Of a DNA stretch of 64,000 nt, positions 14,790 through 43,150 are shown piece by piece. This stretch comes from a plasmid, in sequence record NZ_LC532224.1; one strand, written 5' to 3'. Every line of letters begins with the position of its first letter. Position 1 is the first letter of the stretch. The notes under the pieces are model-generated. The model ran no database searches, had not been told where the DNA came from, and worked only from the letters and a program-made list of their open reading frames with translations. The translations under genes were made by a program, and so were the position numbers.

Positions 14790-17700
14790 CTACTCACTGC
14801 TTGGTATTGATACAGTGTTTTCAGACTTACTTGCCTCTTCAGCCGGTCCGAAAACTGTCACGTGCTGTGTTGCAAAGTCTCCACTATCATCATAAGCAAT
14901 TACTTTTATGTCCTGCTTACCACGGTTAAGGTTTTTAGAAAGTGTTGCCGTACTACCGAAAACGTTCCTTAATTCGCCGTTGATGAACCATTCATATCTA
15001 ACCATTTTTCCATCAGTATCATCACATTTATTGGTAAAGCTCCAGCTTAGGTTGGTTTCCGTGTAGCTCAATGTACAATTAGGCACTGCGTTTTTAACGA
15101 CATCAAACTCAACAGATGCTGAACCTCTCTGTCCAAGTTTACTAACAACATCAATTGTAATCTCGTATTTCTTTTCTTTTAAACCCGAGATCAGTTGAGC
15201 CCAATAATTTTTGCCGCTGGGTATTACTTCACCGTTCACCTTGTATGTGACCGTATCTATCGAGTCCGCCGAATGAGATAGCTTGATGTTTGACCTTAAG
15301 GTTACATCGAGTGGAGCTCTCATATATTTGTTAGAGAACTTGGGTGTCATCTCAACGTTCATTGGCGTTTGTTCATCGACAACAAAGGTATTTTCGATAC
15401 GCTGTTCATTGTTTCGGTTATCTTTGAAAACAACCATCAATGTATATTTGCCAGGATTTTCAATTGTAAATTCTTTGGTGTCACCTTCATCTTTAGTGAT
15501 TACCAGATTCTCTTTGTCGTAGATCCATTCACGGGAATAAGTAACACCAGGATAGTCTCCATCCTTAATACCGCTCAACGCAACGCGTAGGGTGGTCGGT
15601 GCCATGTCGTATTTAAGTTTGGAGCTTATTTTCATCTCGGGAAATTTATAAACCCACGATTTGACAGAAACTCTACGGGTAGAAACCGTATTCTCCTTAT
15701 TGTCCGCTAACCATGCACTGTATTCAAAAGCAGCATATCCCTGTTTATCCAACATTTGCTCAGTAAGGGTAACAGACAGTGAAGAGCCCTTAAATGTCTG
15801 GCCATCCGGTGTTTTCCATTCTTCAACTACGTTATTACCATTCTGGTACTTACTGTTAGGGTTCGTGAACTTACCTTCCAAAGTAACTTTTTGACCAACC
15901 TCTACCTTTGAAACCCCCGTTACCGAGACAGAAAGGCGCTTGGGTTTTGCGGCTGCCAACCGAGCAGACGTTTCCTTCCATGAAGACTCCTCTGCCAGTT
16001 CATCGGAATCAAGGTAACGCATCCGGGCATAAATCGTAGACGGTAGGGTATCAGCTGAAGCCACAGTGTAAGTTGTATCTCCCTGCACCCAGTTGACTTT
16101 ATCCTCTGACCAGAGAACCTCAGCGGTGCCTGCTGGTATAGGTTCATCGTTATCAAGCAGGGTTACAGGTATATCTGAGCCCTGAAGAATGTCTGTAACA
16201 TCTATACTGAGCTTAGGCTGCTTGTAGGTAACTACCGTTAAGGCATCTGTGTAGGAAATCTTGGATGTGAATTTATTAGTCATTTTTGCCCTATAAAGCC
16301 ACTTTCCTACTTCTGTCTTTTTGATACTTACACTTCTCTTTCCGGTCATGTCGGAAAGCATGGTCCAGGTTTGACCATTATCAGAGGACTGCTGCCATTC
16401 GGTGGGGGCGAGTGCATCAGAGTTAGCCGTACTGGCAGATTTGAAGCTTACCAGAGTACTAAGTGGGATCCTTCCGATAATAAGGCTTTTCGACAGGTTA
16501 CCCTCCAGTTCCTCACCTTTATAGATTCGAATGCCTACAGCACTGGTCTCACGTTTCATTTCAAAATCAGAGAATGGCGATCTGACCTTAGCCACACCAA
16601 CCAGACGCATATTACCCAGATCCATATTTTCAATTTTAATCTTGGTTTCGACAATGCCCGCATCATTGACCGGCAATGCTTCAGTCAGCGCAGTTCTTTC
16701 GTATGTAGTTTTATAACGGCCTGTTTCTGGATCTTTGCCGTATACACTTTTTTGAGAGTATATCGTGACGTCCCATTCTCCCATTGTTTTACGGTCAAAT
16801 GCACTTTTACGTGTGGAGTTGTTATAACGCCCCACTGTTACCTTTAAGGGCACTTCAAGAGATGTGGCTGTTTTTTTGTCATCCACTTCCATCGATGCTC
16901 GAATATTGAAATCAGGCACCGTATATACGTTGAGGGTGTCTGTAGTTCTTAATTCTGGATCCTTTGAGTATTCTACAGCTATGTCAAAGACGTTCTTTGT
17001 CCACAATGGTGCAGCAGCAACCTTGACCCTTTGTACAAAGGTCGTTGCATCGTTGTTTGAGGAACGATTTTTAAATGACGTTTTGACAGCCTCAGAGCCG
17101 TTTTGAGAGACGATCATCGTAACGTCAGCTGGTACCACCTTCGCTAATATTCGAGCGGCCTCCCCCCCGGTCGTATAAGCCAGAGCAGTGTTCGGATTGA
17201 TGCCTGCTATGACTTTATTCTTTTTGTAAGAGATGATCGGGTTGTATGGTAATTGTGTGGTCAGAGTACGGCGATTCCTTGCGGAAACCGCTTTAGAGCC
17301 CTTCCCGTTAATCATATAGACTTGATAGTCGAGCAGATTCTCACCTGTTTTATTAAAGAATCCAGTTAGACCCGGGGTACGTCCTTTAAAATAGAACTCC
17401 AACCCATCAGGGACATTGTTCCACTGAGGGTAGCATGCTGTAACATCTGATTTTTCCCCATACCAGGCGAGGTAAGCATTCGCATTTTCCTCTGTGGTAA
17501 ACAGAGTGCATTTATCACCAGCTGTTTGACTAAGCAGGTCCGTATACTGACGTACGCGCGAGTAAAGAGTTACGTTTTTTTCCAGATTCTTAAGAGTGAA
17601 TCCAGTAGGTTGATAAGTGAACACGGTACTGAAATTTACGTTTTTTCCATAAAGGTTTTCAGCCACCACAGTAATCTCGTGATCCGAATTAACTGCTAAA

Positions 17701-19094
17701 TCGTCTCCAACCGGCAGGTAGTAAATACCTTTATAATTTGTAGGTGTTAACGAAACTACTTTGTTGTCTATTGTTACTGATTTTATGTCAGCAACCCCAG
17801 CCTGCCCCTGGAAAGCTGCAACGATAATCTCGTTCAGGAAGTATACGGGTGCTCGTTTAGTTAATACCTGCCCATCTTTGAGAACCATAAGCGTTGGGTT
17901 ATCAGACAGCATCAGTTTGCTTTCAGGCTCAGTGTACGTAGAAGAGTTTTTGCTCGTATTTTCTACTGTAAAAGTCGCTGCGTAGGACCCGTTTATAAGA
18001 TCCGTTAAGTCAAAGATATAGAGGTACTCATCACCGACTTTTTGAGGTCCACTTACCGGCTGTAAAGTTCTACGTAAAGGGGTTGCCCAGGACTGTTTGA
18101 AATCAATCTCAGTGCCATCATCTAAAGTCACTTTAGTCGTCGGCTTAAACACGCCATCCGGAGTCATAGTGAGCGACATAGCTGTTGGGAGCCACCATTC
18201 ACCTTCTGTTTCTTGCTGGGGTACCTTAACGGCCACAGCAACGGTTTTGGCTCCGGTATAGATGTCCTGGCCACCTACTTTGATTGTTTTAGCCTCATCG
18301 GTAAAATTCCAAAGTGTATGGTCTACTACAGGAGGCCGATAATCCCAGTTAACAACAAGCTTTTTGGATTCAGGAGGTGCGAAATAATTATTCTTAGAGT
18401 TTGCTGTAATTGTGATATCACGTGAACCCAAAAGTTCATCTGTATCACTGGCCTTAATGCTTCCAACTTCAATGGTACAGGAAGTTCCGCCAATAGGTAC
18501 TTCACAGGCGGAGCCTGAACCTATTGAGATGTATTGAATATAATTGCGGGGTTCAACAGAAACAGCGATATCTTTGATCGCTTCATCCTTTAAATACGAT
18601 TTGAAAGAAAAGCCGTCATAGACTAATCCGTTCAGGGATGATTTAAGACCGGTGATAGTTGGTTTTACCGGTGCCACACTTTTGATTGAATATTCACCTT
18701 TTACTATTTCAACTTTTTTCCGTTCAGAACCAGAGAAGTAAGAAATCTTGTAAGGTAGTTTTAAATCACCGGTGGTGTTGGGAACGCCTGAAAGAGTGAA
18801 GCCGTTAGAAGTTAATCCCAAGGTATTGGGTAACCACTCAAAAAAACAAACGAGGTTATCAACAGAGGAAGTCGCTCGATCATCAACCGTTACATTACAG
18901 GCTGTGCCTGCACCTGAGGCAGTGATAGTGTTAGAATTAACGTATGCAACAAAGTCGCCCGGCCCCGGGTCAAAGGATACGGCTGGCAAATCAGCCTGTA
19001 GCTTTCCTGAAATCATAATCGCTTCAGCATAGACCGCTTTAATCGGAGCAATTAAAGAAAACAACAGGGCTAAACCTAAACCTGATTTTCTCAT
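14790..19094 (-). CDS. very large secreted bacterial Ig-like (Big) domain protein, RSP-like
   Basis: 1434 aa with a signal peptide (LFSLIAPIKAVYA). It has a repetitive beta-rich, Thr/Ser/Val-rich composition typical of tandem Ig-like domains. It sits adjacent to T4SS genes, as the RSP protein does on IncHI plasmids. Confidence 0.55.
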   Translation of the reverse strand: MRKSGLGLALLFSLIAPIKAVYAEAIMISGKLQADLPAVSFDPGPGDFVAYVNSNTITASGAGTACNVTVDDRATSSVDNLVCFFEWLPNTLGLTSNGFTLSGVPNTTGDLKLPYKISYFSGSERKKVEIVKGEYSIKSVAPVKPTITGLKSSLNGLVYDGFSFKSYLKDEAIKDIAVSVEPRNYIQYISIGSGSACEVPIGGTSCTIEVGSIKASDTDELLGSRDITITANSKNNYFAPPESKKLVVNWDYRPPVVDHTLWNFTDEAKTIKVGGQDIYTGAKTVAVAVKVPQQETEGEWWLPTAMSLTMTPDGVFKPTTKVTLDDGTEIDFKQSWATPLRRTLQPVSGPQKVGDEYLYIFDLTDLINGSYAATFTVENTSKNSSTYTEPESKLMLSDNPTLMVLKDGQVLTKRAPVYFLNEIIVAAFQGQAGVADIKSVTIDNKVVSLTPTNYKGIYYLPVGDDLAVNSDHEITVVAENLYGKNVNFSTVFTYQPTGFTLKNLEKNVTLYSRVRQYTDLLSQTAGDKCTLFTTEENANAYLAWYGEKSDVTACYPQWNNVPDGLEFYFKGRTPGLTGFFNKTGENLLDYQVYMINGKGSKAVSARNRRTLTTQLPYNPIISYKKNKVIAGINPNTALAYTTGGEAARILAKVVPADVTMIVSQNGSEAVKTSFKNRSSNNDATTFVQRVKVAAAPLWTKNVFDIAVEYSKDPELRTTDTLNVYTVPDFNIRASMEVDDKKTATSLEVPLKVTVGRYNNSTRKSAFDRKTMGEWDVTIYSQKSVYGKDPETGRYKTTYERTALTEALPVNDAGIVETKIKIENMDLGNMRLVGVAKVRSPFSDFEMKRETSAVGIRIYKGEELEGNLSKSLIIGRIPLSTLVSFKSASTANSDALAPTEWQQSSDNGQTWTMLSDMTGKRSVSIKKTEVGKWLYRAKMTNKFTSKISYTDALTVVTYKQPKLSIDVTDILQGSDIPVTLLDNDEPIPAGTAEVLWSEDKVNWVQGDTTYTVASADTLPSTIYARMRYLDSDELAEESSWKETSARLAAAKPKRLSVSVTGVSKVEVGQKVTLEGKFTNPNSKYQNGNNVVEEWKTPDGQTFKGSSLSVTLTEQMLDKQGYAAFEYSAWLADNKENTVSTRRVSVKSWVYKFPEMKISSKLKYDMAPTTLRVALSGIKDGDYPGVTYSREWIYDKENLVITKDEGDTKEFTIENPGKYTLMVVFKDNRNNEQRIENTFVVDEQTPMNVEMTPKFSNKYMRAPLDVTLRSNIKLSHSADSIDTVTYKVNGEVIPSGKNYWAQLISGLKEKKYEITIDVVSKLGQRGSASVEFDVVKNAVPNCTLSYTETNLSWSFTNKCDDTDGKMVRYEWFINGELRNVFGSTATLSKNLNRGKQDIKVIAYDDSGDFATQHVTVFGPAEEASKSENTVSIPSSE

Positions 19095-22550: not shown

Positions 22551-25500
22551 TTACCATGACCGAAGTACATAGCGGCTCACACCTTCTGCTGGCTGTTGCC
22601 ACTCGCTATTCTCCGTTGACGGTCTGAGGCGCGTCGAGCCCCGGGAGATGTTTTTCATCGCCTGCTCAAGAGTGTCCATCCTGTAGGTTTTGATGTTCAC
22701 CCCTTCTTCAGAAATAGGCCCCAGCAGTTCCGTAACCTCACGCTCACCCTGATAAATATCGACCCACTGTGTAATATTCACCTTATCACCATTCGCATCA
22801 ATGCCACGTCGGTTAAAGTGGTCAATTTCAAACTCACACACGGTTACCGGTACCAGCCCCTCCGGGCGCGGATACCCGAGTATTTCATCAAAACCAGGTT
22901 CCCCTTCATCAGTGACCAGATCAGGCGTCAAATAGAGTTTTCCGTTACGGGAAAAATGCGCAACATGGCAGGACCACTGGTCATTTAACATCGTTGGCAT
23001 GCTTGTGAACATTCCTGAATACCACCGTCTGGCATTATCAACTGATTTGGTGACGAGGATTTCATCTGGTACTTCCCCGTTGTCCATGGTGTAAAAACTG
23101 AGAGACAGAGCGGTATTTCTGCGTGAAAGTAGCTTTTCTTTATTGACCTCTTTATTTTCAAATTTGGACAGGTATTCCTCAAGGAACAGCGCCTGCAACT
23201 CGGGTGTCGGCGCTTTCTGATAAAACCAGTCGGCCAGGTCTTTAGTGCCAATATAGATGAGGCTGGCTTTACCTTTTTCGCTCTTGACCGCAACAGGAGC
23301 CATTAGGCTTACTTGCTGTACGTACTCACTGGTTTCATTGATACTTTCATAGGCCTCAATCCACTGGCCAAGCAGATTGGTGTAAATCACCGGATCGTTC
23401 AGCTTTAAAAACTGCTTAAGAGCCTGAGCGCCACGGGAGCATGTATCAAAATAACGCTGCTTCTCTTCGAAGCTTTTGAAAGCAGTCTTTTTGCCCGACC
23501 ATGTGGCCACCAGCTGTTCATCTTCGAACAGGGTGTTTTCAGCTGGTAAGAAGTGTTTCATTTTCGCAAAACGTTGATGAGTGACGTTTAAGACATTTCG
23601 GGATGTAGCAAGTACCATTCGATGAACCCAGGCATGCCCTTCCATCCGGTTGTCGCATTCAAAATTTGCTGGTGCGGCATATGCAACAAGTTTCCCTGAA
23701 GCATTTACCGATAACCTGACCAGCTCATAGCCTTTGCTGCTAATAAAATTACGAACCCCGGGAAGATGTTTGAGCCCCACATCAGCGAGCATATAGAGCT
23801 GGTTCAGGAGCTCTTTGGAGCCCTTCTCTGTACTCATGGCAGCTTCCAGCGTCGCCCCCCTGTTATCAGCTCGCCAGGCTACAATGCATCGATCTATCAA
23901 CTCTGATCTCAGATTAGGCTGGCCAATATTTCCATCGGCCAGAGCCTGGCTCAGCATCTGCCGGTAAGGTTCTTCTGCCTCACGCTCGGCACGAATATAA
24001 TTTAAAGCCATCTTGAAGAAGCGAATGTAAAACAGGTGATTAGACCTGAATTTACGTCTGTGAATGTACCATTCGAGCTCCTCCGCTTTAATGGTATCCA
24101 TGCACAGGAAACCCAGTTCAGCATCATTCCTGCTGGACTCCTTAAATAAAGACAAATTCACCTTACAATTGAAATCTCGATCCGTTGAGTATCTGTTTAC
24201 TGTTGCGTTGACACAGATATCGTCTCCCTGACGGAATGCAATAACCGGCTCATAGTTTTTATGGGTTCTCCCAAGCCATTTATAGCCAGAGTAGCTGTTG
24301 TCTTCCTGAACTGCTCCTGGTGCTGTCACTGGGTTCATCAACGAATCCCAGTTGCACATTACCCGGGATCCGGACTGAAGGCATGAGTTTGCCTGTTCAA
24401 GATAACTTTGCAGAGACGGCCGTGTCTCAGCCATACCCAAAAGGCCAGAACCGTCTTTGTCGTGCAGAAATTGGAAGTACCGTTCCTGGAACTCAAGGCT
24501 CAGAAAACTGTAAGGGGTATTGGTATCATAGAAATCACCAAATAGTTTGAGCCGGTGATCGAGGCCGCAGATAAGGATCAGGAAACGACGGTAGTGAAGT
24601 GCCATAAGATCATGCTGCTTCAGTCGGTCGGTATAACTGACGTCCTCAAACTTTATGGTGCTGCCATCAATCCCCTGGAAATGTGCTTCCTGTTCGCTGG
24701 CGGAAGGGAATAGCTGCGAAGCCCCAAGATGGCTTTCTACCGAAGAGTAAACCTGATGAATATTTTGACCGTCCCGGACCAGAAGGAATACAACCCGGTT
24801 CCTGTCATTGCGGACATGATTTTCCCAGGGATCGCGGTAATCGATATAACGTCGTGTTGTGGCCATACATACGATGGAACGTTCGGACGGAAAAATCTGC
24901 TCCACCAGCCCGGGGCTGGTTCGTAAAGTTTCATGAAATTTTTCCATATCAGAGAAGTCGAACCAGCTATCGAGATCGCACCATACGGCCAGCTCTTCAT
25001 CCACCATCAGCTTTGCCTGAACGACCTGGAGCGGGAGGTGTGATGGAGCGGATTCACCCTTCACGATATTCACTACCTCAACGTCTTTGCCGGTATACAG
25101 TTCCAGACTGCCAACGCCATCGTGGATTTTCTTCACATATTCCATGGCTTCTTCTGTAGTGGCCAGACTTGCCGCTGCAACTTCCTCGAAATAGGGCAGC
25201 ATTCTTTTGCTGGCATTAGCGATTGCCTGCGTTCGTTGTGTGATGATTTTGCTGATGGCTGTGCTGATCTGCCCTTCTTTTAAGGCCGCTTCTCTGATTT
25301 GTTCAATGCGGGTATCTGAAATACCAGAGGACAGAGCATTTTGAACTGATCCAATCGCCAGTGAGGTTACCGCCTGCTGCTCTTGTGGGGGCACTAACGC
25401 AACGCTAAGGCCCGTCACAGGGTTTTCACGGTCATCTGTACCTAATTGCTCAATCGCAAGGTCACGGAACCCCTGAGCATCGCTCACGAGGGCTGTAAGC

Positions 25501-25886
25501 GATGCCTGTAGGCTATTCACTTCTTCCTGAGCTTGTCTGAGTTCAGCATCCCGGATTACCTTATGGTCGGGTTCAAATACAAAACTGGACAGAAAATCCT
25601 TAACCAGGAAGCGATGCTCTCGCATTTCTTTGCCACGTTCCCTACGGTTGCCGCTGCTGTCTTCAGTGACAATAGCTACAGTCTGACCGTAAACGCGGGG
25701 ATGGGCGCGTAGAATCACTGTGTGCAGCTTATCTTCAACGTAACGCAAAGACGTAATGAGCAGCGTATCCCCTGCCACAATACCCTCTTCAGGGATGCTG
25801 TCAGTGGACGTCCAGTACTGACCCGCCAGCAAAGAATGAAATCGCTCTAAACGGTCAATGTTATTTTTGCTGACCAGGTCACCCAT
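22551..25886 (-). CDS. large cytoplasmic protein of unknown function (1111 aa)
   Basis: Long uninterrupted ORF with good coding composition. No Walker, nuclease or other catalytic motif recognised by eye. Confidence 0.6.
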   Translation of the reverse strand: MGDLVSKNNIDRLERFHSLLAGQYWTSTDSIPEEGIVAGDTLLITSLRYVEDKLHTVILRAHPRVYGQTVAIVTEDSSGNRRERGKEMREHRFLVKDFLSSFVFEPDHKVIRDAELRQAQEEVNSLQASLTALVSDAQGFRDLAIEQLGTDDRENPVTGLSVALVPPQEQQAVTSLAIGSVQNALSSGISDTRIEQIREAALKEGQISTAISKIITQRTQAIANASKRMLPYFEEVAAASLATTEEAMEYVKKIHDGVGSLELYTGKDVEVVNIVKGESAPSHLPLQVVQAKLMVDEELAVWCDLDSWFDFSDMEKFHETLRTSPGLVEQIFPSERSIVCMATTRRYIDYRDPWENHVRNDRNRVVFLLVRDGQNIHQVYSSVESHLGASQLFPSASEQEAHFQGIDGSTIKFEDVSYTDRLKQHDLMALHYRRFLILICGLDHRLKLFGDFYDTNTPYSFLSLEFQERYFQFLHDKDGSGLLGMAETRPSLQSYLEQANSCLQSGSRVMCNWDSLMNPVTAPGAVQEDNSYSGYKWLGRTHKNYEPVIAFRQGDDICVNATVNRYSTDRDFNCKVNLSLFKESSRNDAELGFLCMDTIKAEELEWYIHRRKFRSNHLFYIRFFKMALNYIRAEREAEEPYRQMLSQALADGNIGQPNLRSELIDRCIVAWRADNRGATLEAAMSTEKGSKELLNQLYMLADVGLKHLPGVRNFISSKGYELVRLSVNASGKLVAYAAPANFECDNRMEGHAWVHRMVLATSRNVLNVTHQRFAKMKHFLPAENTLFEDEQLVATWSGKKTAFKSFEEKQRYFDTCSRGAQALKQFLKLNDPVIYTNLLGQWIEAYESINETSEYVQQVSLMAPVAVKSEKGKASLIYIGTKDLADWFYQKAPTPELQALFLEEYLSKFENKEVNKEKLLSRRNTALSLSFYTMDNGEVPDEILVTKSVDNARRWYSGMFTSMPTMLNDQWSCHVAHFSRNGKLYLTPDLVTDEGEPGFDEILGYPRPEGLVPVTVCEFEIDHFNRRGIDANGDKVNITQWVDIYQGEREVTELLGPISEEGVNIKTYRMDTLEQAMKNISRGSTRLRPSTENSEWQQPAEGVSRYVLRSW

Positions 25887-31077: not shown

Positions 31078-31097
31078 TACTGTTTATACATACAGTA
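31078..31097 (+). promoter_or_regulatory. LexA (SOS) box upstream of the umuD-like gene
   Basis: TACTGTTTATACATACAGTA fits the consensus TACTG-N10-CAGTA. It lies 20 bp upstream of the ATG at 31117. Confidence 0.85.
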
Positions 31098-35299: not shown

Positions 35300-36049
35300 T
35301 TACTTTTGCGCAGCGCCCATTTGGGTCACCAGGTTTTCCGGGCTCAGCCACCCCGTAAATAACTGCGGTTTGCCGCTTAGTGTCACCATGGTAGGAGTAC
35401 CTTGCAGCGGGATTGTTGAGGCCACCTGGAAATGCGATTTGATAATGTTTAAGCAAGCCTCATCAGGACGTCCTTCCGGGATAGTTGAAACCGGATTCAT
35501 CGCTGCATCCAGAGCTTCGTTTGGCTTTGCTGAACACCAGATTTTGGCCATGTTCCCGGCTACTACCGAGTTCAGTCCTGCACGTGGGAATGCAAGAAAC
35601 TTAATCGAAATACCGGCATCAAGATAAGACTTCAGATCATGATGCAGTTTTTGGCAGTATCCACAGGTTATATCGGTAAAGATAGCAAGCCGGTATTTTT
35701 CGTTTGGTGATTTGTAGTCGATGGATTTTGTTTTGGATGCGAATTCCCGGACGCCCATTAAAATGGCCTGCTCAGTGGTGTTTACCACATCTTTACCTTT
35801 CACGTGGAATAAGCTTCCGGTAAAAATGTAATCTCCGTCTTTGCTCACGTAACTTACCCCCTCCCTGGAAATCACCGTAAAAATATCTTTTACTGGCGAG
35901 GGTTCGACGTGCTCGATTGAAAGCCCAATGGCTTTGAGCTTATCCCGGGCTGCATCTGGCAGTACCATTGTATTAACCGGCTCGGCATTCATCGTGAAGG
36001 CGGTACTTAATGAAAGAAGTAATACCGATGCCTTAATAATTTTTTTCAT
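35300..36049 (-). CDS. dsbC: DsbC-like periplasmic thiol:disulfide isomerase
   Basis: Signal peptide, dimerisation-like N-terminus, and a thioredoxin domain with the DsbC-type CGYC active site. Confidence 0.75.
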   Translation of the reverse strand: MKKIIKASVLLLSLSTAFTMNAEPVNTMVLPDAARDKLKAIGLSIEHVEPSPVKDIFTVISREGVSYVSKDGDYIFTGSLFHVKGKDVVNTTEQAILMGVREFASKTKSIDYKSPNEKYRLAIFTDITCGYCQKLHHDLKSYLDAGISIKFLAFPRAGLNSVVAGNMAKIWCSAKPNEALDAAMNPVSTIPEGRPDEACLNIIKSHFQVASTIPLQGTPTMVTLSGKPQLFTGWLSPENLVTQMGAAQK

Positions 36050-36196: not shown

Positions 36197-36736
36197 GTGT
36201 TTACACCACCAGCAGATGATGTGAAACCTATTCCCGTTCCTGATGAGATTTACACTCAGTGCATTACGGATGCCGCCCGCTACTTCGGAATTGATGCTGA
36301 ACTGGTTTTTACGTTGTTTGACAATGAAGGCGGTAAGGTTGGTACTTTCAGCAGGAATACTAACGGCACTTATGATATTGGCCCAATGCAGATCAACTCA
36401 TCCAATCTACCTGAAATAAAAAAGCATTTCCCGACGGTAACGTGGCGGGTTCTGGCTTACGATGCTTGCGCAAGTTTCTGGGTTGGAACATGGTGGCTCT
36501 ATAGAAAAATTGTTGATCGCAAGGGCAATGTGTTTGAAGGGATTGCAGATTACAACAGCAAAACCCCAAAGGTACGTGCAAAGTACATATTTAACTTCAT
36601 GGTAAAGTACAATCGCCGGATCCAGCAGCGTAACGGGATGGGTGAGCTTTATCAATGGACCCAGCAACCTCCTCGATACAATGGCCATATAGCTAAAAAT
36701 GTCCCGGAGCAAAACCCGACTCCTGTTGTTAAATAA
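36197..36736 (+). CDS. lytic transglycosylase (P19/ORF169/VirB1-like)
   Basis: GTG start. Conserved motifs ...FDNEGG..., ...DIGPMQIN... and ...ACASF..., as in conjugation-associated muramidases. Confidence 0.7.
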   Translation: MFTPPADDVKPIPVPDEIYTQCITDAARYFGIDAELVFTLFDNEGGKVGTFSRNTNGTYDIGPMQINSSNLPEIKKHFPTVTWRVLAYDACASFWVGTWWLYRKIVDRKGNVFEGIADYNSKTPKVRAKYIFNFMVKYNRRIQQRNGMGELYQWTQQPPRYNGHIAKNVPEQNPTPVVK

Positions 36737-36818: not shown

Positions 36819-37376
36819 TTGTCTTCTTCTGCAAGAAATTTATTTAAGATTCTCTCTTCTTTCTTGATCCAGAAAAACCCTCATCATGAAGAAGTATGTG
36901 TTCATGAAGAAACAACAGCTGGTTTATGGGCCCCTCTCCCTGATTCGCATGTCGTGCTTTTCTTAGATTTCGATGGGGTTTGCCACAGGTGTAAAAATGA
37001 AACCTTTGAGCGAATGCCACTGTTAGAGAAATTGCTGGATAACTGCCCTGCCATGGTGATTGTTATCTCCAGCTCATGGCGTGAGTGCGCTAATACAAGT
37101 TATCTGAAATCTCTGTTCCGGGTGCCTTATAGAGACAAAATCATAGGTGCAACCGGTTCGGTATATTTAAAACACGGACAGACTGGTGTGCGGGCTGCCG
37201 AGTGTGAGGACTTTGTCTTTTCACATCGAGTTAAAGCATTTATCTGCCTTGATGACGACGAATCATTATTTCCGGCCGGTTATCCGCATTTGCACAAAAC
37301 CGATTATTACACGGGCCTCACCGAATCTGACCTTGCAGCTCTTAACGCAAGGTACCATCAGCTCATGGGACGCTGA
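36819..37376 (+). CDS. HAD-superfamily phosphatase-like protein
   Basis: HAD motif I VLFLDFDGV, motif II VIVISSSW, motif IV FICLDDDES. The 185-aa size resembles the phosphatase domain of polynucleotide kinase-phosphatases. Confidence 0.5.
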   Translation: MSSSARNLFKILSSFLIQKNPHHEEVCVHEETTAGLWAPLPDSHVVLFLDFDGVCHRCKNETFERMPLLEKLLDNCPAMVIVISSSWRECANTSYLKSLFRVPYRDKIIGATGSVYLKHGQTGVRAAECEDFVFSHRVKAFICLDDDESLFPAGYPHLHKTDYYTGLTESDLAALNARYHQLMGR

Positions 37377-37499
37377 TGAACAAAGTAACTTTCCTTTTAC
37401 CCTGTCACTGCTGATCTCGTACGCCCATCCACTTTAGGATTGATTGTTTTATACCATACGCAATAATGTCTCATATGAATTCGACAAGAAAGGGACATT

Positions 37500-38561
37500 A
37501 TGCTGCATCACTGTCAGGCTAAGTCACTGGATGACATATACCTTGAGGATATTCCCCACATCATACATCCGGCCACGGCGGTACATGACCTCGAAGATAC
37601 CGCCCTGCCAAACCGGATTATTCAGGAATGGAATTTACCGCAGGGATATACACAGTTTGTCAGCCGGTATCACCAGTTCCACCATCAACGCCCCTGGCTC
37701 GCTTACCGCGATACGCTTGACGACATCAGATACGGTAAGATCGTTCTGCTTAGAAAAGACATAACCGGCAATGCCGGGCCGGGGGTTATATCAAATGGCA
37801 ACCTACGCAATGACCTGCCCCTGTCCCTCTTTACCCGTCTGCGCGATATCATCTCTCGTCAGTTGAAACGCCCGGGGTATTACGTTCGATCAACGACACC
37901 AGCACAGCACGCCCAATCAACAAAAACCATTAATTCCAAAGCGGCTGGTCGTCTTCTCGCAGCTGGCGGGCTTTATAATGGAAATGTGGAGGGATTTCGA
38001 CATACGGCTGAACAACTTGGCGGCGAAGCTGTTGAAGGCTATGACCAGGTATTGAACGAAACAACTTCAGGTATGCTGGTTGCAGCGGCTTCACTTCTGG
38101 TTATCCGAAATCCAAGGTCTGCGGATGAATTGACAAGTTATCTCGGCAAGTACAAAAAAGCACACGTTTTGCTCGATGATATGAATGTTAGCGAATTGAA
38201 CTACATGCGCCGAGACAGAGCTGAATATTTAGCTCTCCGTGGACAATTCAACAATACTGTACGCCCTAACTTCCTTAAATCACTTTCAGACCACCCAGAT
38301 GCCCTGGCTACGTTTGAACCTAACGATTTGATGAAACTTGCAACAGGCAAGGTCCCCTCTGGGTGGCAGGTTCACCACAAGATCCCTCTTGATGATGGTG
38401 GCACAAACGCTATAGACAACCTGGTACTTATTCAGAATTCACCATACCATTCAGCACTGTCGAAAGCACAATCCATCATTACGAAGGATCTACCGTATAA
38501 TTCAAGCACCAAAGTTCTATGGCCATCGCCGAACGGTGTTATCTACCCGGTAGGAAAGTAA
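37500..38561 (+). CDS. toxin-like protein with C-terminal colicin/pyocin-type HNH DNase domain
   Basis: C-terminus ...ATGKVPSGWQVHHKIPLDDGGTNAIDNLVLIQNSPYHS... closely parallels the colicin E9/E7 HNH motif (...[33 protein letters not shown]). Good RBS AAGGGA upstream. Confidence 0.7.
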   Translation: MLHHCQAKSLDDIYLEDIPHIIHPATAVHDLEDTALPNRIIQEWNLPQGYTQFVSRYHQFHHQRPWLAYRDTLDDIRYGKIVLLRKDITGNAGPGVISNGNLRNDLPLSLFTRLRDIISRQLKRPGYYVRSTTPAQHAQSTKTINSKAAGRLLAAGGLYNGNVEGFRHTAEQLGGEAVEGYDQVLNETTSGMLVAAASLLVIRNPRSADELTSYLGKYKKAHVLLDDMNVSELNYMRRDRAEYLALRGQFNNTVRPNFLKSLSDHPDALATFEPNDLMKLATGKVPSGWQVHHKIPLDDGGTNAIDNLVLIQNSPYHSALSKAQSIITKDLPYNSSTKVLWPSPNGVIYPVGK

Positions 38562-38570
38562 GAGGCGCTC

Positions 38571-39077
38571 ATGAAAGATTTAACTCAACTACTCAGCAGC
38601 TTAAAGAGGTTGATGGTTGCAGATCACTACCCTTTAGCCAGCCCGGTAGCCCCGGAAGTCTTGAAAGACTTAATCTGCAATCCGCCTCCAGTGGAGTGGG
38701 CAGATCACAAAAAGAGCGCCTATATAGATATACAGAAACTCATTAAAACCAGGCTTGATTATGCCCAAGTGTTTAATGCTATGGATGGTTTTGAGTACAA
38801 CGGACTTACGTTTTATAACCTTGTTCAGGCAGAGAACGAAAATCTATTGTGGTCAAATATTTACATACGCAACTTTGAAGCACGAGACAATGAAATCTAC
38901 GTTGACCCAAATCTCACTGATAAGGTGTTAATCGGAGAAGATGGCATGTCACTTTTCGCTTATAGTTTTGCAGACGACTGCTTTCAGATAAGAGACAAAG
39001 CATCTACTGATTATGTTATTGAATCTCATACAGAGTTTGATAGATTTTTGTCTTCACTGATTCAAACCGTCAGTTGA
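38571..39077 (+). CDS. SUKH (SMI1/KNR4)-like putative immunity protein
   Basis: Starts 10 bp after the toxin stop. SUKH-like signatures (W..LP.dY..f...nGfeynGl; vLIGEDGmslfaysfaDD...DYVIEsHtEF). Confidence 0.55.
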   Translation: MKDLTQLLSSLKRLMVADHYPLASPVAPEVLKDLICNPPPVEWADHKKSAYIDIQKLIKTRLDYAQVFNAMDGFEYNGLTFYNLVQAENENLLWSNIYIRNFEARDNEIYVDPNLTDKVLIGEDGMSLFAYSFADDCFQIRDKASTDYVIESHTEFDRFLSSLIQTVS

Positions 39078-39102
39078 ATGTTCCGCAAGAGCGGTACTTC
39101 TG

Positions 39103-39140
39103 AAAAAAAGGCCGCAAACACATACTTTGCGGCCTTAATT
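39103..39140. terminator. bidirectional terminator between the immunity gene and trhG
   Basis: Perfect 11-bp stem AAGGCCGCAAA/TTTGCGGCCTT with a 7-nt loop, preceded by an A-run. Confidence 0.75.
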
Positions 39141-39199: not shown

Positions 39200-42100
39200 T
39201 TATTTTTTATTTTCATTAAGCCACTGATCCGCTTTATCGACACGTGACTGGTAAGGCTCATTTGTGTTGCTCAGCTCTGACTTCATGTACTGAATGAATT
39301 CATCTGCTTTCTGAGGCCCAAAGCGTGGGTCATCCGTCAATTGCTGCCGGATAGCCCTTTCAGAGTTCTGCGCTGCATTCGCATAAGTCGAAACGCCGTC
39401 GCTGCTAATACTCTGATACCGGTCACTTACAGCTGCGACGCCATCAGACATCTGCATGTGATTAAGGACTTTACCCTGGAGAGAATCAGGCATATTTGCA
39501 GGGTTAGAGGCATCATTTGCTATCGATGTCTGGGTTTGAAGGATGCCCGCTCCCGTAAGCATCTCATTTACCGGTTTCGCCCCAACGCTGGTTAGCGTAT
39601 CCGAAACAAATTGCTGGCCCCCGAGTAGCGCACCAGAAATCGCGCCCCGCTCAGTGTTGGCCTCTATCTTTTCCCCAACCAAGCGATCTGTGACGGTCTG
39701 AGTGCGGTTACCAACGAGACCACCGCCCGACCCACCTTCTCCCAGGTTTGCCCGTACGACTGACTCAAGTGAACCATCAGCTCTGTTATGAGTGTTGAAA
39801 CTGCTATGGATGCTCTTAACGTCATTCATACTCCAGTTAACGTTATAGTTACCCAGTTCATTAAGGATCTTCTGGGTATCCGCTTTGAGCTGCTCTCTTT
39901 CGGCACCGGTAGCCATGGTGCTGGCACCATAGGTAAAGACAGCTTGCTGTGCCAATTCAGCTCGCTTATCGTCCCGGCTTAAGTTCGGGTTGTTGGCAAC
40001 ACGACTAAAGTAGTTATCAGTGTTATTAGATAAGCCACGAACTTGCCCGCTCTGATACATACTGTTCAAAGCAGTGGCTCGTTGATCCATTCCATCACCA
40101 ACCACCCGACCTCCAACCTTTTCCAGATCGTTAAATGTGCCTTCTGCATTTCTGACATCCTGACCCGAATTGACGACTTTCTCTACACCCTGATTATTCA
40201 GTACAGGTCCATTCTTTTCGAGAGAATTAAGCACATTCCTTTCTTCATCAGAATAAGTGCGGCCCACGTTGTTGTTATGTATTCCCTGAATATCGCCTTT
40301 GCCCGCGTTATCAAGGTTATACGGAGTAAAGCCAGCTTCACTTTTTCCAGGGACATGCTGTGTCGCGTCCTGAGCGTTGGAGGAAAGACCGAGTTTAGCC
40401 TGCGAATCTACACTTCCACCCAGTTCCCCTACGCGTGACGCACTCATCACGCCAGACGTATTTACGCTGTCAGGAGTTCTATCCTGTGCCTGAGTGATAG
40501 TATTAATTCCTGACCCGTCACCTGAAATTCTGTCGAGCTGATTGGTGATAGGTAGCAGCTGCTGTGCATTACCACCGAAGTCGGAAACCAGACTTTTAAG
40601 CAGGCTGGAGGTTTCACGGAGATCCTGTTTATTACTTTCGGCCGTCTCTCCCCGGGCGGTATCAATCGCAATTTTTTGCTCACTGAAATCTCGGGTTGCA
40701 GCCACAAGCGCGTCAGTACGTTGAAGCTGCGATCCAAGCTGATTACTGGCCTTGAAGGTATCGTTATAGGAGTTGAATTTCTCCATAAACGCATTCTCAT
40801 CCAGCCCATTCTTACGAGCAAAATTCCTTACATCATCATCACTGAAGTTTTTGTTGCGAATAGAATCGGAGAACCTGTCCAGGTTAATGCTTTGTTTAGA
40901 ATCAAGGCTCATTCCACTATTGGAGCTTGCGTTAGTCGAAACCGATGTAGAAATATTTTGCGCCATCGTCTGTGTCGCCTGGTTCATTTTCGACGATGCT
41001 TCTTTAAACGCATTAGTATTGGATATCTGATCGCTGCTTACCTGAGACGCCGCTTTACTGAACTGGTCAGTTAACGCAGAATCCTGGCTAAGCTGATTCG
41101 TGATTGCTTTTGAAAGGTCATTTGAAAGCGAGTCACTGCCTGTATTGGTCTTAGATGCACCGCTACTCAATTGCCCTGCTACAGCCGCTTTCAGCCCGGC
41201 TCCATTGCCAGTTCCAACACCTCCATTAAGCCCAGCGTTGAGAATAACATTTGAAGCAATGCTGGCCATCTGAGACGCACTCACCCCATGTTTCGTTGCA
41301 ATACCTTCTGCTACAGAGGCACCAATCTTATCCGAGATCTGCTTCATTGTTTGCAGGTTGGTTGAGAACTGCTGGCTCGACTGTCCTGACCTTCCAATTT
41401 CGCTCATCTGACTGTAACCAGCCTGGAATGAATTACTTGCCGCACTCATAACTGATGAGGTTACAGCTGATCCTTGTCCCTGGCTGTTAGCGATACTTGA
41501 ACCAGCATTCCACATTCCAAGACGGAAATTACTTGAATCAACTGCGCCGCCATCGCTGTATCCCTGACCGGTACTGGTTAAGGCGGTTCGTGTCACGTCA
41601 CCAAATGAAGATTTACCGCTGTTAGGGCCATCCCATACTTTGGGCGTTACATGACCAGTATCCACCGGCGCATCGGGGGTCACTCCCTTAACCGCATTCA
41701 TCATCGGGTGAATCGACTGTGTCATCAGGAATAATGTGAGTACCGGAATCAGAGCATAGAGGGCGGAAGCAACAGACAGGTATGAACTGTATGTTTCCGC
41801 AAGCCCTGGGAGTCCCATCCACGTGACGGCATTATTCTGGCTGTTGAGGGTGCTCCAGGTATCCAAGTCGGCCGTCGCGACTTTCTTCACATACGCGTTG
41901 ACCATTACTGCCGTAAGCGGCCACATATTCACGAAGAGGATAAGTTGCAAATATTTCGCCGCAGCGGCAACACCATTACCACCTAACGCCAGCAGCATAA
42001 GCAAAGCAAATGGAGCAACCATATAAGCAAACATTTCAAGGAATGCGATTGCTGCTCCCGACAGTTGTAACCACAACTGGCCCTGTGAAGCCATTGTGTT

Positions 42101-43150
42101 GGTTCGCTTCAGAGAAGCCTCAAACAACTGCATATCGGAAGCCAGACCGAGTGGGGTCTTATATTTGCTTGCGCCATTTCTGAGCTCATTCATAATGAAC
42201 AGGTTCAGGGTGGCGTCATACGAACCAATAGCCTTACCGTACATACCATTTGCTGACGCCATAACATCAGTAAAGCTTGCGCCGGTAGGTGCACCATTTG
42301 CTTCGTCTGGAGTAAGGATGCCGTTTGTCTGTCCTATAAGGGAAATAGTCTGGCGAGCTTCAGCTGTACTGGTAACCTGTTTCACAGTTGACCAGACCTC
42401 ATCACACGTACCAGATTTTGAACCGTTAGCGCCAACAATACTGGCAGAGGCATTCTTCAGTGCGCCTTTCATCGCCTGATTAATCCGGTCCATGCTATCT
42501 GCCAGATTAGCTGAGAAAATATCGTTAAAAATAGTTTCTTTACCGGCAATATTTGCGCTTGAGTTTTGGGTAGCCTTCAGGCAGTTGTATGCAAGAGACT
42601 GAACGGTAGCACATACGTTCATTGGCCCTAGCCCGCTGGCCGGTTCAGGAAATGCGGAACAGTAGCCCTGGCTATCGCCGCCCCATTGCAAAAACTTCAC
42701 GAATCGGATCATCGGACCGAGGGTGATGTCATCGTCCAGAGTTGTTGCAGACAGGTCCACCGGAGAAAGCGGATCAAACGCTGTTTTATAATCCTTCAGC
42801 AAACCCTGGCTTAAGTTAGTGGTGACGGTTGCCATCGCAGCAATAAAAATTGGAATTCCGTCGACGTTTCTGACCTCTCCCGACTTTACAGATTCAATAG
42901 TTACATCCACTCGAACCATTGCCATCATGAAAAGGATCAACCCCAAAAACCAGGAGAAAAACGGTAATTCATTTTTGGTCGGAGCCTGAAGCCATAGCCA
43001 CGTTTTATAGAATAGGCTCACACCTGCTACAACGGCGGCCGTGGTCAGGAACTCTTTTACACCAGTATATTGAGAAAAGATCAGGGCAATACCGGTAAAA
43101 GCCGACCAGACAAAATCAATATCACCCAGGGTATATATGTTGTAATCCAT
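39200..43150 (-). CDS. trhG: TraG-like mating-pair stabilisation / entry-exclusion-determinant protein (TrhG)
   Basis: 1316 aa. Polytopic TraG_N-like N-terminus and a long Ser/Gly/Asn/Gln-rich periplasmic C-terminus. Downstream of the traF/traH homologues, as in F-like systems. Confidence 0.75.
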   Translation of the reverse strand: MDYNIYTLGDIDFVWSAFTGIALIFSQYTGVKEFLTTAAVVAGVSLFYKTWLWLQAPTKNELPFFSWFLGLILFMMAMVRVDVTIESVKSGEVRNVDGIPIFIAAMATVTTNLSQGLLKDYKTAFDPLSPVDLSATTLDDDITLGPMIRFVKFLQWGGDSQGYCSAFPEPASGLGPMNVCATVQSLAYNCLKATQNSSANIAGKETIFNDIFSANLADSMDRINQAMKGALKNASASIVGANGSKSGTCDEVWSTVKQVTSTAEARQTISLIGQTNGILTPDEANGAPTGASFTDVMASANGMYGKAIGSYDATLNLFIMNELRNGASKYKTPLGLASDMQLFEASLKRTNTMASQGQLWLQLSGAAIAFLEMFAYMVAPFALLMLLALGGNGVAAAAKYLQLILFVNMWPLTAVMVNAYVKKVATADLDTWSTLNSQNNAVTWMGLPGLAETYSSYLSVASALYALIPVLTLFLMTQSIHPMMNAVKGVTPDAPVDTGHVTPKVWDGPNSGKSSFGDVTRTALTSTGQGYSDGGAVDSSNFRLGMWNAGSSIANSQGQGSAVTSSVMSAASNSFQAGYSQMSEIGRSGQSSQQFSTNLQTMKQISDKIGASVAEGIATKHGVSASQMASIASNVILNAGLNGGVGTGNGAGLKAAVAGQLSSGASKTNTGSDSLSNDLSKAITNQLSQDSALTDQFSKAASQVSSDQISNTNAFKEASSKMNQATQTMAQNISTSVSTNASSNSGMSLDSKQSINLDRFSDSIRNKNFSDDDVRNFARKNGLDENAFMEKFNSYNDTFKASNQLGSQLQRTDALVAATRDFSEQKIAIDTARGETAESNKQDLRETSSLLKSLVSDFGGNAQQLLPITNQLDRISGDGSGINTITQAQDRTPDSVNTSGVMSASRVGELGGSVDSQAKLGLSSNAQDATQHVPGKSEAGFTPYNLDNAGKGDIQGIHNNNVGRTYSDEERNVLNSLEKNGPVLNNQGVEKVVNSGQDVRNAEGTFNDLEKVGGRVVGDGMDQRATALNSMYQSGQVRGLSNNTDNYFSRVANNPNLSRDDKRAELAQQAVFTYGASTMATGAEREQLKADTQKILNELGNYNVNWSMNDVKSIHSSFNTHNRADGSLESVVRANLGEGGSGGGLVGNRTQTVTDRLVGEKIEANTERGAISGALLGGQQFVSDTLTSVGAKPVNEMLTGAGILQTQTSIANDASNPANMPDSLQGKVLNHMQMSDGVAAVSDRYQSISSDGVSTYANAAQNSERAIRQQLTDDPRFGPQKADEFIQYMKSELSNTNEPYQSRVDKADQWLNENKK

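Follow-up and report, generated by a model that had tools for sequence, protein, structure and literature searches.

Two adjacent genes in the transfer region of a plasmid (record NZ_LC532224.1, of which a stretch of 64,000 nucleotides, hereafter the window, was analysed) probably encode an orphan cargo effector of a type VI secretion system (T6SS) and its immunity protein, and would constitute an accessory cassette of IncHI2 plasmids of the R478 lineage. A sequence-only reading had described this pair of open reading frames (ORFs; 353 and 168 amino acids, aa) as a colicin-type HNH DNase with a SUKH-like immunity gene. Both ORFs are present, the second starting 9 nt past the stop codon of the first, and Shine-Dalgarno-like sequences (AAGGGA and AAGAGG) lie ahead of them. 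The PIX domain that we recognise at the N-terminus of the toxin is rare, restricted to Enterobacterales and encoded by orphan genes, with polymorphic C-termini and a small downstream gene. Several lines of evidence speak for the proposed assignment, namely the modularity of the toxin, its PIX match, its entry in Dataset S1 of Carobbi et al., the homology of the pair to yhhZ-yrhA, the invariant catalytic residues, the fold matches, the discrete boundaries of the cassette and the occurrence of orthologues outside transfer regions. The family, the delivery domain and the exact accession are already published, and there is nothing new here as a gene-family finding. The genes and modules are as follows.

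37500..38561, + strand: PIX-HNH toxin gene, 353 aa (ORF; identical to WP_000902297.1, an annotated coding sequence of pMS7884A; in Dataset S1 of Carobbi et al.)
37500..37919, + strand: PIX delivery domain, aa 1-140 (BLASTP, Dataset S1 entry, AlphaFold2)
37920..38105, + strand: conserved linker, aa ~141-202 (common to Hcp- and VgrG-fused nuclease toxins)
38106..38558, + strand: HNH DNase domain of the YhhZ/Hcp-ET1 clan, aa ~203-353 (catalytic core aa 291-317, 38370-38450)
38571..39077, + strand: YrhA-family putative immunity gene, 168 aa (ORF; identical to WP_000654195.1; NCBIfam NF038335)

Modules of the toxin and their relatives

Homologue searches divide the toxin into three modules: an N-terminal domain, a linker and an HNH domain. 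In BLASTP, aa 1-199 show 66-72% identity to 348-aa Pse3-like proteins of Pantoea and to Colicin-D PIX proteins, and aa 1 to ~140 (with the linker, 1-199) show 63-73% identity to the N-termini of 325-354-aa Enterobacterales proteins, whose C-termini are Colicin D, DUF6883 or unknown, more distant members carrying DUF3289 or GH19-like domains. A small gene follows each of these variously fused PIX proteins (in the Colicin D version, a Colicin_immun gene), which bears out the earlier suggestion of a polymorphic toxin-immunity pair. The same reading had left an N-terminal region of about 260 aa without a family while supposing that it specifies the delivery route; the latter point agrees with the PIX assignment, and the former has to be dropped, as aa 1-140 correspond to the published PIX domain and aa 122-353 are homologous to YhhZ.

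Carobbi et al. (10.1101/2023.07.16.549128, a preprint later published as Cell Rep 2024;43:114015 and cited throughout from a part of its text) reported for Pantoea that PIX (aa 1-140) is both necessary and sufficient for T6SS-dependent secretion and binds VgrG, and that a deletion of residues 141-200 leaves the secretion of Pse3 and Pse4 unaffected. Among these Pantoea agglomerans effectors, Pse3 (348-350 aa) has an unknown toxin, Pse4 combines PIX with Colicin D and Pse5 combines it with HNH, and both Pse3/Psi3 and Pse4/Psi4 act as effector-immunity pairs in competitions. The same source counts 224 PIX proteins in 1,571 genomes (92.4% of the genomes with a T6SS) and describes all PIX genes as orphan, ~95% of them with a downstream gene within 25 bp. 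WP_000902297.1 has no fewer than 149 entries in its Dataset S1 (PIX at 1-139, E = 1.24e-87), and the neighbours given there are WP_001371950.1 (HAD_SAK_2), WP_000654195.1 (168 aa, beginning 9 bp downstream), WP_000494968.1 (LT_IagB-like) and WP_000386160.1. The HAD, YrhA, SLT and TrhG neighbours are those of the window's locus, and the window protein has therefore already been catalogued as a PIX effector. It shares with Pse3, Pse4 and Pse5 the PIX domain, the linker, the orphan location and an immunity gene just downstream, and with the intact form of Pse5 the whole PIX-HNH architecture. On the other hand, it differs from these effectors in residing on a broad-host-range conjugative resistance plasmid of the IncHI2 type, inside the Tra1 region.

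In an AlphaFold2 model of the toxin, two confident domains (1-125 and ~227-353; predicted local distance difference test, pLDDT, ~90) are connected through a linker modelled as helical with low confidence. The first of these domains is a compact alpha/beta fold with no solved structural analogue. We considered whether it could be a degenerate Hcp, as Hcp is replaced at the same junction, and rejected this possibility: the predicted alpha/beta fold is not the Hcp beta-barrel, and there is no T6SS_HCP match. Full-length orthologues (62-83% identity) were found in Kosakonia, Pantoea, Mangrovibacter and Pluralibacter.

The linker, with 16 invariant columns across 64 sequences, is the most conserved part of the family, and it matches the region that follows Hcp in many Hcp-fused proteins. 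A linker hidden Markov model (HMM; aa 141-202) run over 245 toxin homologues found it in 72 PIX and 138 non-PIX proteins, the latter mostly Hcp-fused, and 25 PIX matches were without the linker (the PIX HMM having been built from BLAST-defined PIX sequences with Hcp N-termini excluded). The linker-bearing PIX proteins have small C-terminal toxins of 119-156 aa (HNH, Colicin D, DUF6883 and the Pse3 type), while the linker-less full-size PIX representatives (n = 7) have large domains (DUF3289, GH19-like, unknown). In proteins with Hcp or a VgrG-like spike as the carrier, the domains that come after the linker are HNH, Tox-HNH-EHHH, Endonuclease_NS_2 and EndoU; in fact, every identifiable toxin behind it is a nuclease, including the Colicin D found behind PIX. 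A role of the linker in getting nucleases across the inner membrane of the target or into its cytoplasm is speculative, and it is a reasonable hypothesis because the linker is dispensable for secretion; possibly, it serves instead as a recombination handle for toxin swapping.

The C-terminal module contains the HNH core that had been recognised by eye. The generic HNH profile of Pfam (PF01844) matches aa 288-311 above the gathering score (E = 4.6e-6), and the core motif (VHHKIPLDDGGTNAIDNLVLIQNSPYH, aa 291-317) has the spacing HH-x2-P-x3-GG-x4-DN-x7-P-x-H, slightly different from that originally written. Residues H292, H293, N307 and H317 are invariant across 15 relatives. The region of aa 122-353 is 47% identical to YhhZ of E. 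coli K-12 (E = 2e-67; at the DNA level, K-12 yhhZ is too diverged to have been picked up in a search of E. coli genomes), and aa ~131-353 share 72-85% identity with the C-terminal two-thirds of Enterobacterales proteins of 370-383 aa, the N-termini of which have precomputed PF26362 (DUF8093) matches or match Pfam T6SS_HCP (PF05638). Hcp-ET1, an HNH-DNase of this clan, degrades target DNA upon T6SS-dependent delivery and has a cognate immunity protein, ETi1 (Ma et al. 2017, as related in PMC6099711 and PMC6730261). Both YhhZ-YrhA and Hcp-ET1/ETi1 resemble the window pair in their homologous linker and HNH domain and in the YrhA-type gene downstream; the N-terminal carrier of Hcp-ET1 is, however, a fused Hcp tube subunit, whereas the window toxin has PIX, as expected of VgrG-loaded cargo.

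The fold matches obtained with Foldseek for the HNH domain include pyocins AP41 and S2, Serratia Rhs2-CT, Cas8-HNH and colicin E7, those to the pyocin and colicin DNases having a Foldseek probability of 0.98-0.99 with 26-28% identity over 70-88 columns. The T6SS toxin Rhs2-CT of Serratia marcescens, paired with RhsI2 (PDB 9t38), differs in that it forms the tip of a PAAR-Rhs cage when delivered, and in having a different immunity protein. At the level of sequence profiles, no Colicin-DNase family match was found for the toxin at E <= 1, and the PDB sequence match to pyocin AP41 was weak (E = 0.098); a search of PDB with a profile from the mixed alignment gave a blurred picture, the C-terminal columns of that alignment containing Colicin D sequences. 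A His-Me finger classification likewise places the YhhZ/Hcp-ET1 HNH group apart from colicins and pyocins (32 versus 18). The term "colicin-type" used in the sequence-only reading is thus imprecise: pyocin and colicin DNases are among the nearest folds, but the clan is that of YhhZ/Hcp-ET1.

These likenesses raise the question of a colicin-like bacteriocin that would leave the producer by lysis and enter its targets via an outer-membrane receptor. The beta-beta-alpha-metal HNH core (HH...N...H) is shared with colicins E7 and E9 and with pyocins S2 and AP41, which provide top Foldseek matches, an immunity gene is adjacent and the pair is plasmid-borne. However, colicins and pyocins have receptor and translocation domains, Im-type immunity, SOS control and a lysis gene, and the window pair has none of these; the absence of a receptor or translocation domain, a lysis gene and an SOS box near the pair had been correctly observed at the outset. 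No LexA box was found upstream of the pair, and the only perfect one in the vicinity (31080) precedes umuD. Together with the missing Colicin-DNase match, this domain evidence contradicts colicin-like release, which we regard as scarcely credible. As a separate observation, the umuD homologue of the plasmid (31117-31551) has the perfect LexA-box consensus CTGTTTATACATACAG 22 nt upstream, at 31080-31095, in line with SOS regulation of umuDC.

The YrhA-family partner

The 168-aa protein matches the NCBIfam family NF038335 ("YrhA family") with E = 2e-36 and is homologous to the YrhA fragment of E. coli K-12 (E = 5e-14), where yrhA follows yhhZ. In every locus inspected, a YrhA-type gene sits downstream of an HNH toxin of the YhhZ/Hcp-ET1 clan. 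The SUKH/SMI1-KNR4 signatures attributed to this protein in the sequence-only reading were not recovered, neither it nor any of 34 family members having a Pfam SUKH or SMI1 match at E <= 10, and a YrhA profile searched against PDB sequences returned nothing relevant. The top Foldseek PDB match of the immunity model is in fact an SMI1/KNR4 protein (3d5p), although a weak one (E = 0.062, probability 0.82, TM-score 0.45), Syd (3ffv) being the 14th match; the model itself is mediocre (mean pLDDT 68.5, residues 74-112 mostly below 50). The match to 3d5p may therefore be taken as a hint of a SUKH-like fold in the predicted structure, not as its demonstration. In Citrobacter and, there often, in Salmonella, we also observed YrhA proteins fused to DUF4926 in proteins of 227-228 aa (P0260, P0290, P0320, P0331, P0332).

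The distribution of this family brings up a mainly defensive reading, according to which yrhA would be selected against YhhZ, Hcp-ET1 and PIX-HNH effectors of neighbours, the toxin being a passenger that is often inactive in its host. YrhA-family genes are indeed very widespread (Klebsiella, Enterobacter, Salmonella, E. coli and Pantoea), acquired orphan immunity genes are a recognised phenomenon according to a review, and natural truncations of the toxin exist. On the other hand, the toxin is intact, and its catalytic residues invariant, in the majority of copies: a PIX of 100%-99% identity is present in 414 plasmid records, and most of the 283-member 90% cluster of the window toxin are of 353 aa. 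Among chromosomal YrhA proteins, even the nearest reach no more than 60-70% identity to the plasmid copy, making cross-protection uncertain. We consider the defensive reading unlikely.

The cassette in the IncHI2 backbone

The window represents the Tra1 region of an R478-type IncHI2 plasmid. Many large conjugative plasmids typed IncHI2A/MOBH/MPF_F match its segment 36700-39200 at 100% identity. One of them is pMS7884A, in which the Prokaryotic Genome Annotation Pipeline (PGAP) labels the two proteins, identical to those of the window, as "HNH endonuclease" (WP_000902297.1) and "YrhA family protein" (WP_000654195.1). An identical toxin gene is present in the prototype, R478 (NC_005211.1). Products encoded in the rest of the window include a coupling protein, UmuDC and proteins resembling TraN, TrbC, TraH and TraI_2, a gene content in keeping with an IncHI2 transfer region. 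When the window is aligned with the sister IncHI2 lineage (L002), homology stops at the stop codon of the HAD gene (~37376) and resumes at a shared hairpin (~39104), which delimits the cassette among the following features.

37377..39103, + strand: lineage-specific 1.73-kb cassette comprising a 123-bp leader, the toxin gene and the immunity gene (pairwise alignment with the sister lineage)
37440..37467, + strand: candidate sigma-70 promoter, weak (TTGATT-16-AATAAT, 9/12 consensus matches), inside the cassette-specific leader
39108..39136, no strand assigned: bidirectional hairpin terminator between the cassette and the convergent trhG (11-bp stem, 6 GC pairs, T-runs on both strands)
35300-36049: DsbC-like gene, flanking the pair
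36197-36736: lytic transglycosylase (SLT) gene, flanking the pair
36819-37376, + strand: HAD_SAK_2 gene, between the SLT gene and the cassette
39200-43150: trhG, convergent to the pair

The flanking SLT and DsbC genes on one side and trhG on the other are as given in the sequence-only reading, which had not mentioned the HAD_SAK_2 gene. The terminator hairpin is also conserved in the sister lineage. No T6SS family was found among the window ORFs scanned against Pfam or NCBIfam, the neighbours of the pair being type IV secretion system (T4SS), Dsb, SLT and HAD genes, and PADLOC matched neither the toxin nor its immunity protein nor the HAD protein to a defence system. The HAD gene keeps ~90% identity across both IncHI2 lineages and is disrupted by two natural insertion sequences (IS). 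Elsewhere in the window, two very large ORFs (14790-19094, - strand, 1434 aa; 22551-25886, - strand, 1111 aa) have no Pfam match at E <= 1e-5 and no NCBIfam match at E <= 1e-3.

Among 949 plasmid records matching the segment, ~425 contain the whole of it (416 of these at 99% identity or more), the cassette being present in ~45% of IncHI2 records, and ~507 match at ~90% through the SLT and HAD genes only. The half or so of IncHI2 plasmids that lack the cassette are still typed as conjugative. In the sister lineage, with its ~507 records, the slot between the HAD gene and trhG holds one gene only, on the opposite strand (L002:7794-9083, - strand). Its 429-aa product has an HNH_2 domain at the C-terminus (PF13391, E = 1.5e-10), a weak PADLOC "HNH" match and an N-terminus of ~320 aa without a family match, and no immunity gene adjoins it. 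Two unrelated HNH genes alternate at one site of the IncHI2 backbone. The possibility that this gene is a second PIX toxin (P0225 is of equal length) was discarded, BLASTP showing no similarity to either protein. We also noted a strong skew among hosts, the cassette being present in 249/255 Enterobacter IncHI2 records as compared with 31/323 from Escherichia and 57/247 from Salmonella; this may reflect the epidemiology of plasmid sublineages or, alternatively, T6SS compatibility.

The location of the cassette is an argument for export by, or alongside, the IncHI conjugation apparatus into recipients, as the sequence-only reading had envisaged. In that case, the toxin could act as a conjugation-coupled killer, or rescue by immunity could enforce plasmid uptake. 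Within Tra1, the cassette has the SLT/DsbC genes on one side and trhG on the other and shares its strand with the SLT-HAD genes, and a related HNH-yrhA pair occurs in an integrative element of E. coli whose TraI is of the MOBH type. This last pair (370-aa HNH protein and YrhA) is found on the chromosome of E. coli C5 (L010:8545-10171) in an integrative element at tRNA-Phe; it has 68% DNA identity to the C-terminal half of the window toxin gene and the immunity gene, and adjoins UvrD-helicase, TraI-domain (MOBH-type) and integrase genes. The delivery domain is, however, PIX, which is experimentally T6SS- and VgrG-specific and has no known T4SS substrate signal, and the sister lineage with its unrelated slot gene is still typed as conjugative. 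Moreover, adjacency to transfer genes is not conserved among orthologues: that of Pluralibacter, with its 170-aa partner, sits between chromosomal housekeeping genes, that of Kosakonia, carried by an IncFII-RepA plasmid, has a TacA/TacT module on one side and repA on the other, and that of Pantoea is found among hha genes on a ParAB/Rep3 plasmid. PIX relatives in general occur as two-gene modules in genomic islands without T6SS genes, and orphan T6SS effectors on plasmids have already been documented in Pantoea. The domain evidence thus contradicts delivery through the T4SS, which appears very unlikely. The position beside trhG is probably incidental and not meaningful for conjugation; under the T6SS reading it would be a permissive insertion slot in the backbone with no functional link to transfer.

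PLSDB contains 442 plasmids that match PIX, and in 426 of these the match is at least 90% identical to the window copy, which makes IncHI2 the main plasmid vehicle of PIX. IncHI2 as a PIX carrier is not discussed in the cited part of the preprint (10.1101/2023.07.16.549128), and no paper linking IncHI2 to T6SS effectors or treating the function of the pair was found in the searchable library.

This dominance of IncHI2 among PIX-positive plasmids would also suit plasmid addiction, in which the toxin stays inside the cell and plasmid-free cells die as the immunity protein decays, so that the plasmid is stabilised without any secretion system. In favour of such a role, full-length orthologues with yrhA are found on at least three plasmid backbones, next to TacA/TacT and repA in Kosakonia and to par/rep genes in Pantoea. 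Furthermore, none of the four IS insertions observed in this stretch across plasmids falls in the toxin gene or disrupts the immunity gene (two lie either downstream of yrhA or at its very 3' end, and the other two in the HAD gene), although as natural knockouts these insertions are uninformative. On the other hand, a full PIX secretion domain, needless for intracellular killing, is kept in orthologues of 62-83% identity; the cassette is also chromosomal, is absent from about half of IncHI2 plasmids and has a truncated toxin in some of them; and nothing points to an unstable immunity protein. Addiction of this kind is accordingly doubtful, and it is compatible with T6SS delivery. Of the alternatives, it comes first in a rough order of plausibility, followed by the defensive role of yrhA, T4SS delivery and colicin-like release.

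Proposed delivery and protection, and plasmid ecology

The reading that we prefer, a T6SS cargo effector with its immunity gene, can be put as a sequence of steps. The toxin would be made in the plasmid-bearing cell and neutralised there by the co-expressed YrhA-family protein, as suggested by synteny and by the Hcp-ET1/ETi1 precedent. Its PIX domain (aa 1-140) would load it onto the VgrG spike of the host's chromosomal T6SS, an activity demonstrated for PIX in Pantoea, and firing of the T6SS would presumably inject it into neighbouring Enterobacterales. There, the HNH domain is predicted to degrade the target DNA, as Hcp-ET1 does, given an identity of 47-85% to its relatives and an intact core; neighbours that carry the plasmid would be protected by yrhA. 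An anti-competitor role, one of those listed in the sequence-only reading, is the best reading of the pair.

Several points weigh against it. It is from relatives that we infer the secretion, VgrG binding and DNase activity of the toxin, as well as the protection conferred by YrhA. PIX was tested, in the cited part of the preprint (10.1101/2023.07.16.549128), with one VgrG of Pantoea, whereas the hosts of IncHI2 plasmids are Enterobacter, Salmonella, Klebsiella, E. coli and Citrobacter. The candidate promoter is a weak consensus match of a kind that is not enriched over shuffled sequences. Truncated alleles (P0371, P0373, P0377) on large contigs of IncHI2 size indicate that selection on the toxin is not universal: one form, on 13 contigs, is of 232 aa and lacks PIX (aa 122-353 remain), and others, of 221-230 aa, have lost HNH by a frameshift after ~217-228. 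Because such natural truncated alleles exist, the toxin is decaying in some plasmids. Finally, killing plasmid-free neighbours removes recipients for conjugation, which is odd for a conjugative plasmid.

A broader and rather tentative extension is that a plasmid of the R478 lineage may arm any Enterobacterales host with a ready-to-load T6SS nuclease and its immunity, leading to the killing of plasmid-free neighbours and segregants. This would amount to addiction at the population level exerted through the T6SS of the host, in tension with conjugation, the linker perhaps being a module for entry through the inner membrane.

For annotation, the implication is that the "HNH endonuclease" and "YrhA family protein" entries on several hundred clinical IncHI2 plasmids would be better described as a PIX-type T6SS effector-immunity pair. 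For the biology of these plasmids, it raises an ecological question, namely whether an epidemic resistance plasmid gains by arming the T6SS of its hosts, given its need for live recipients.

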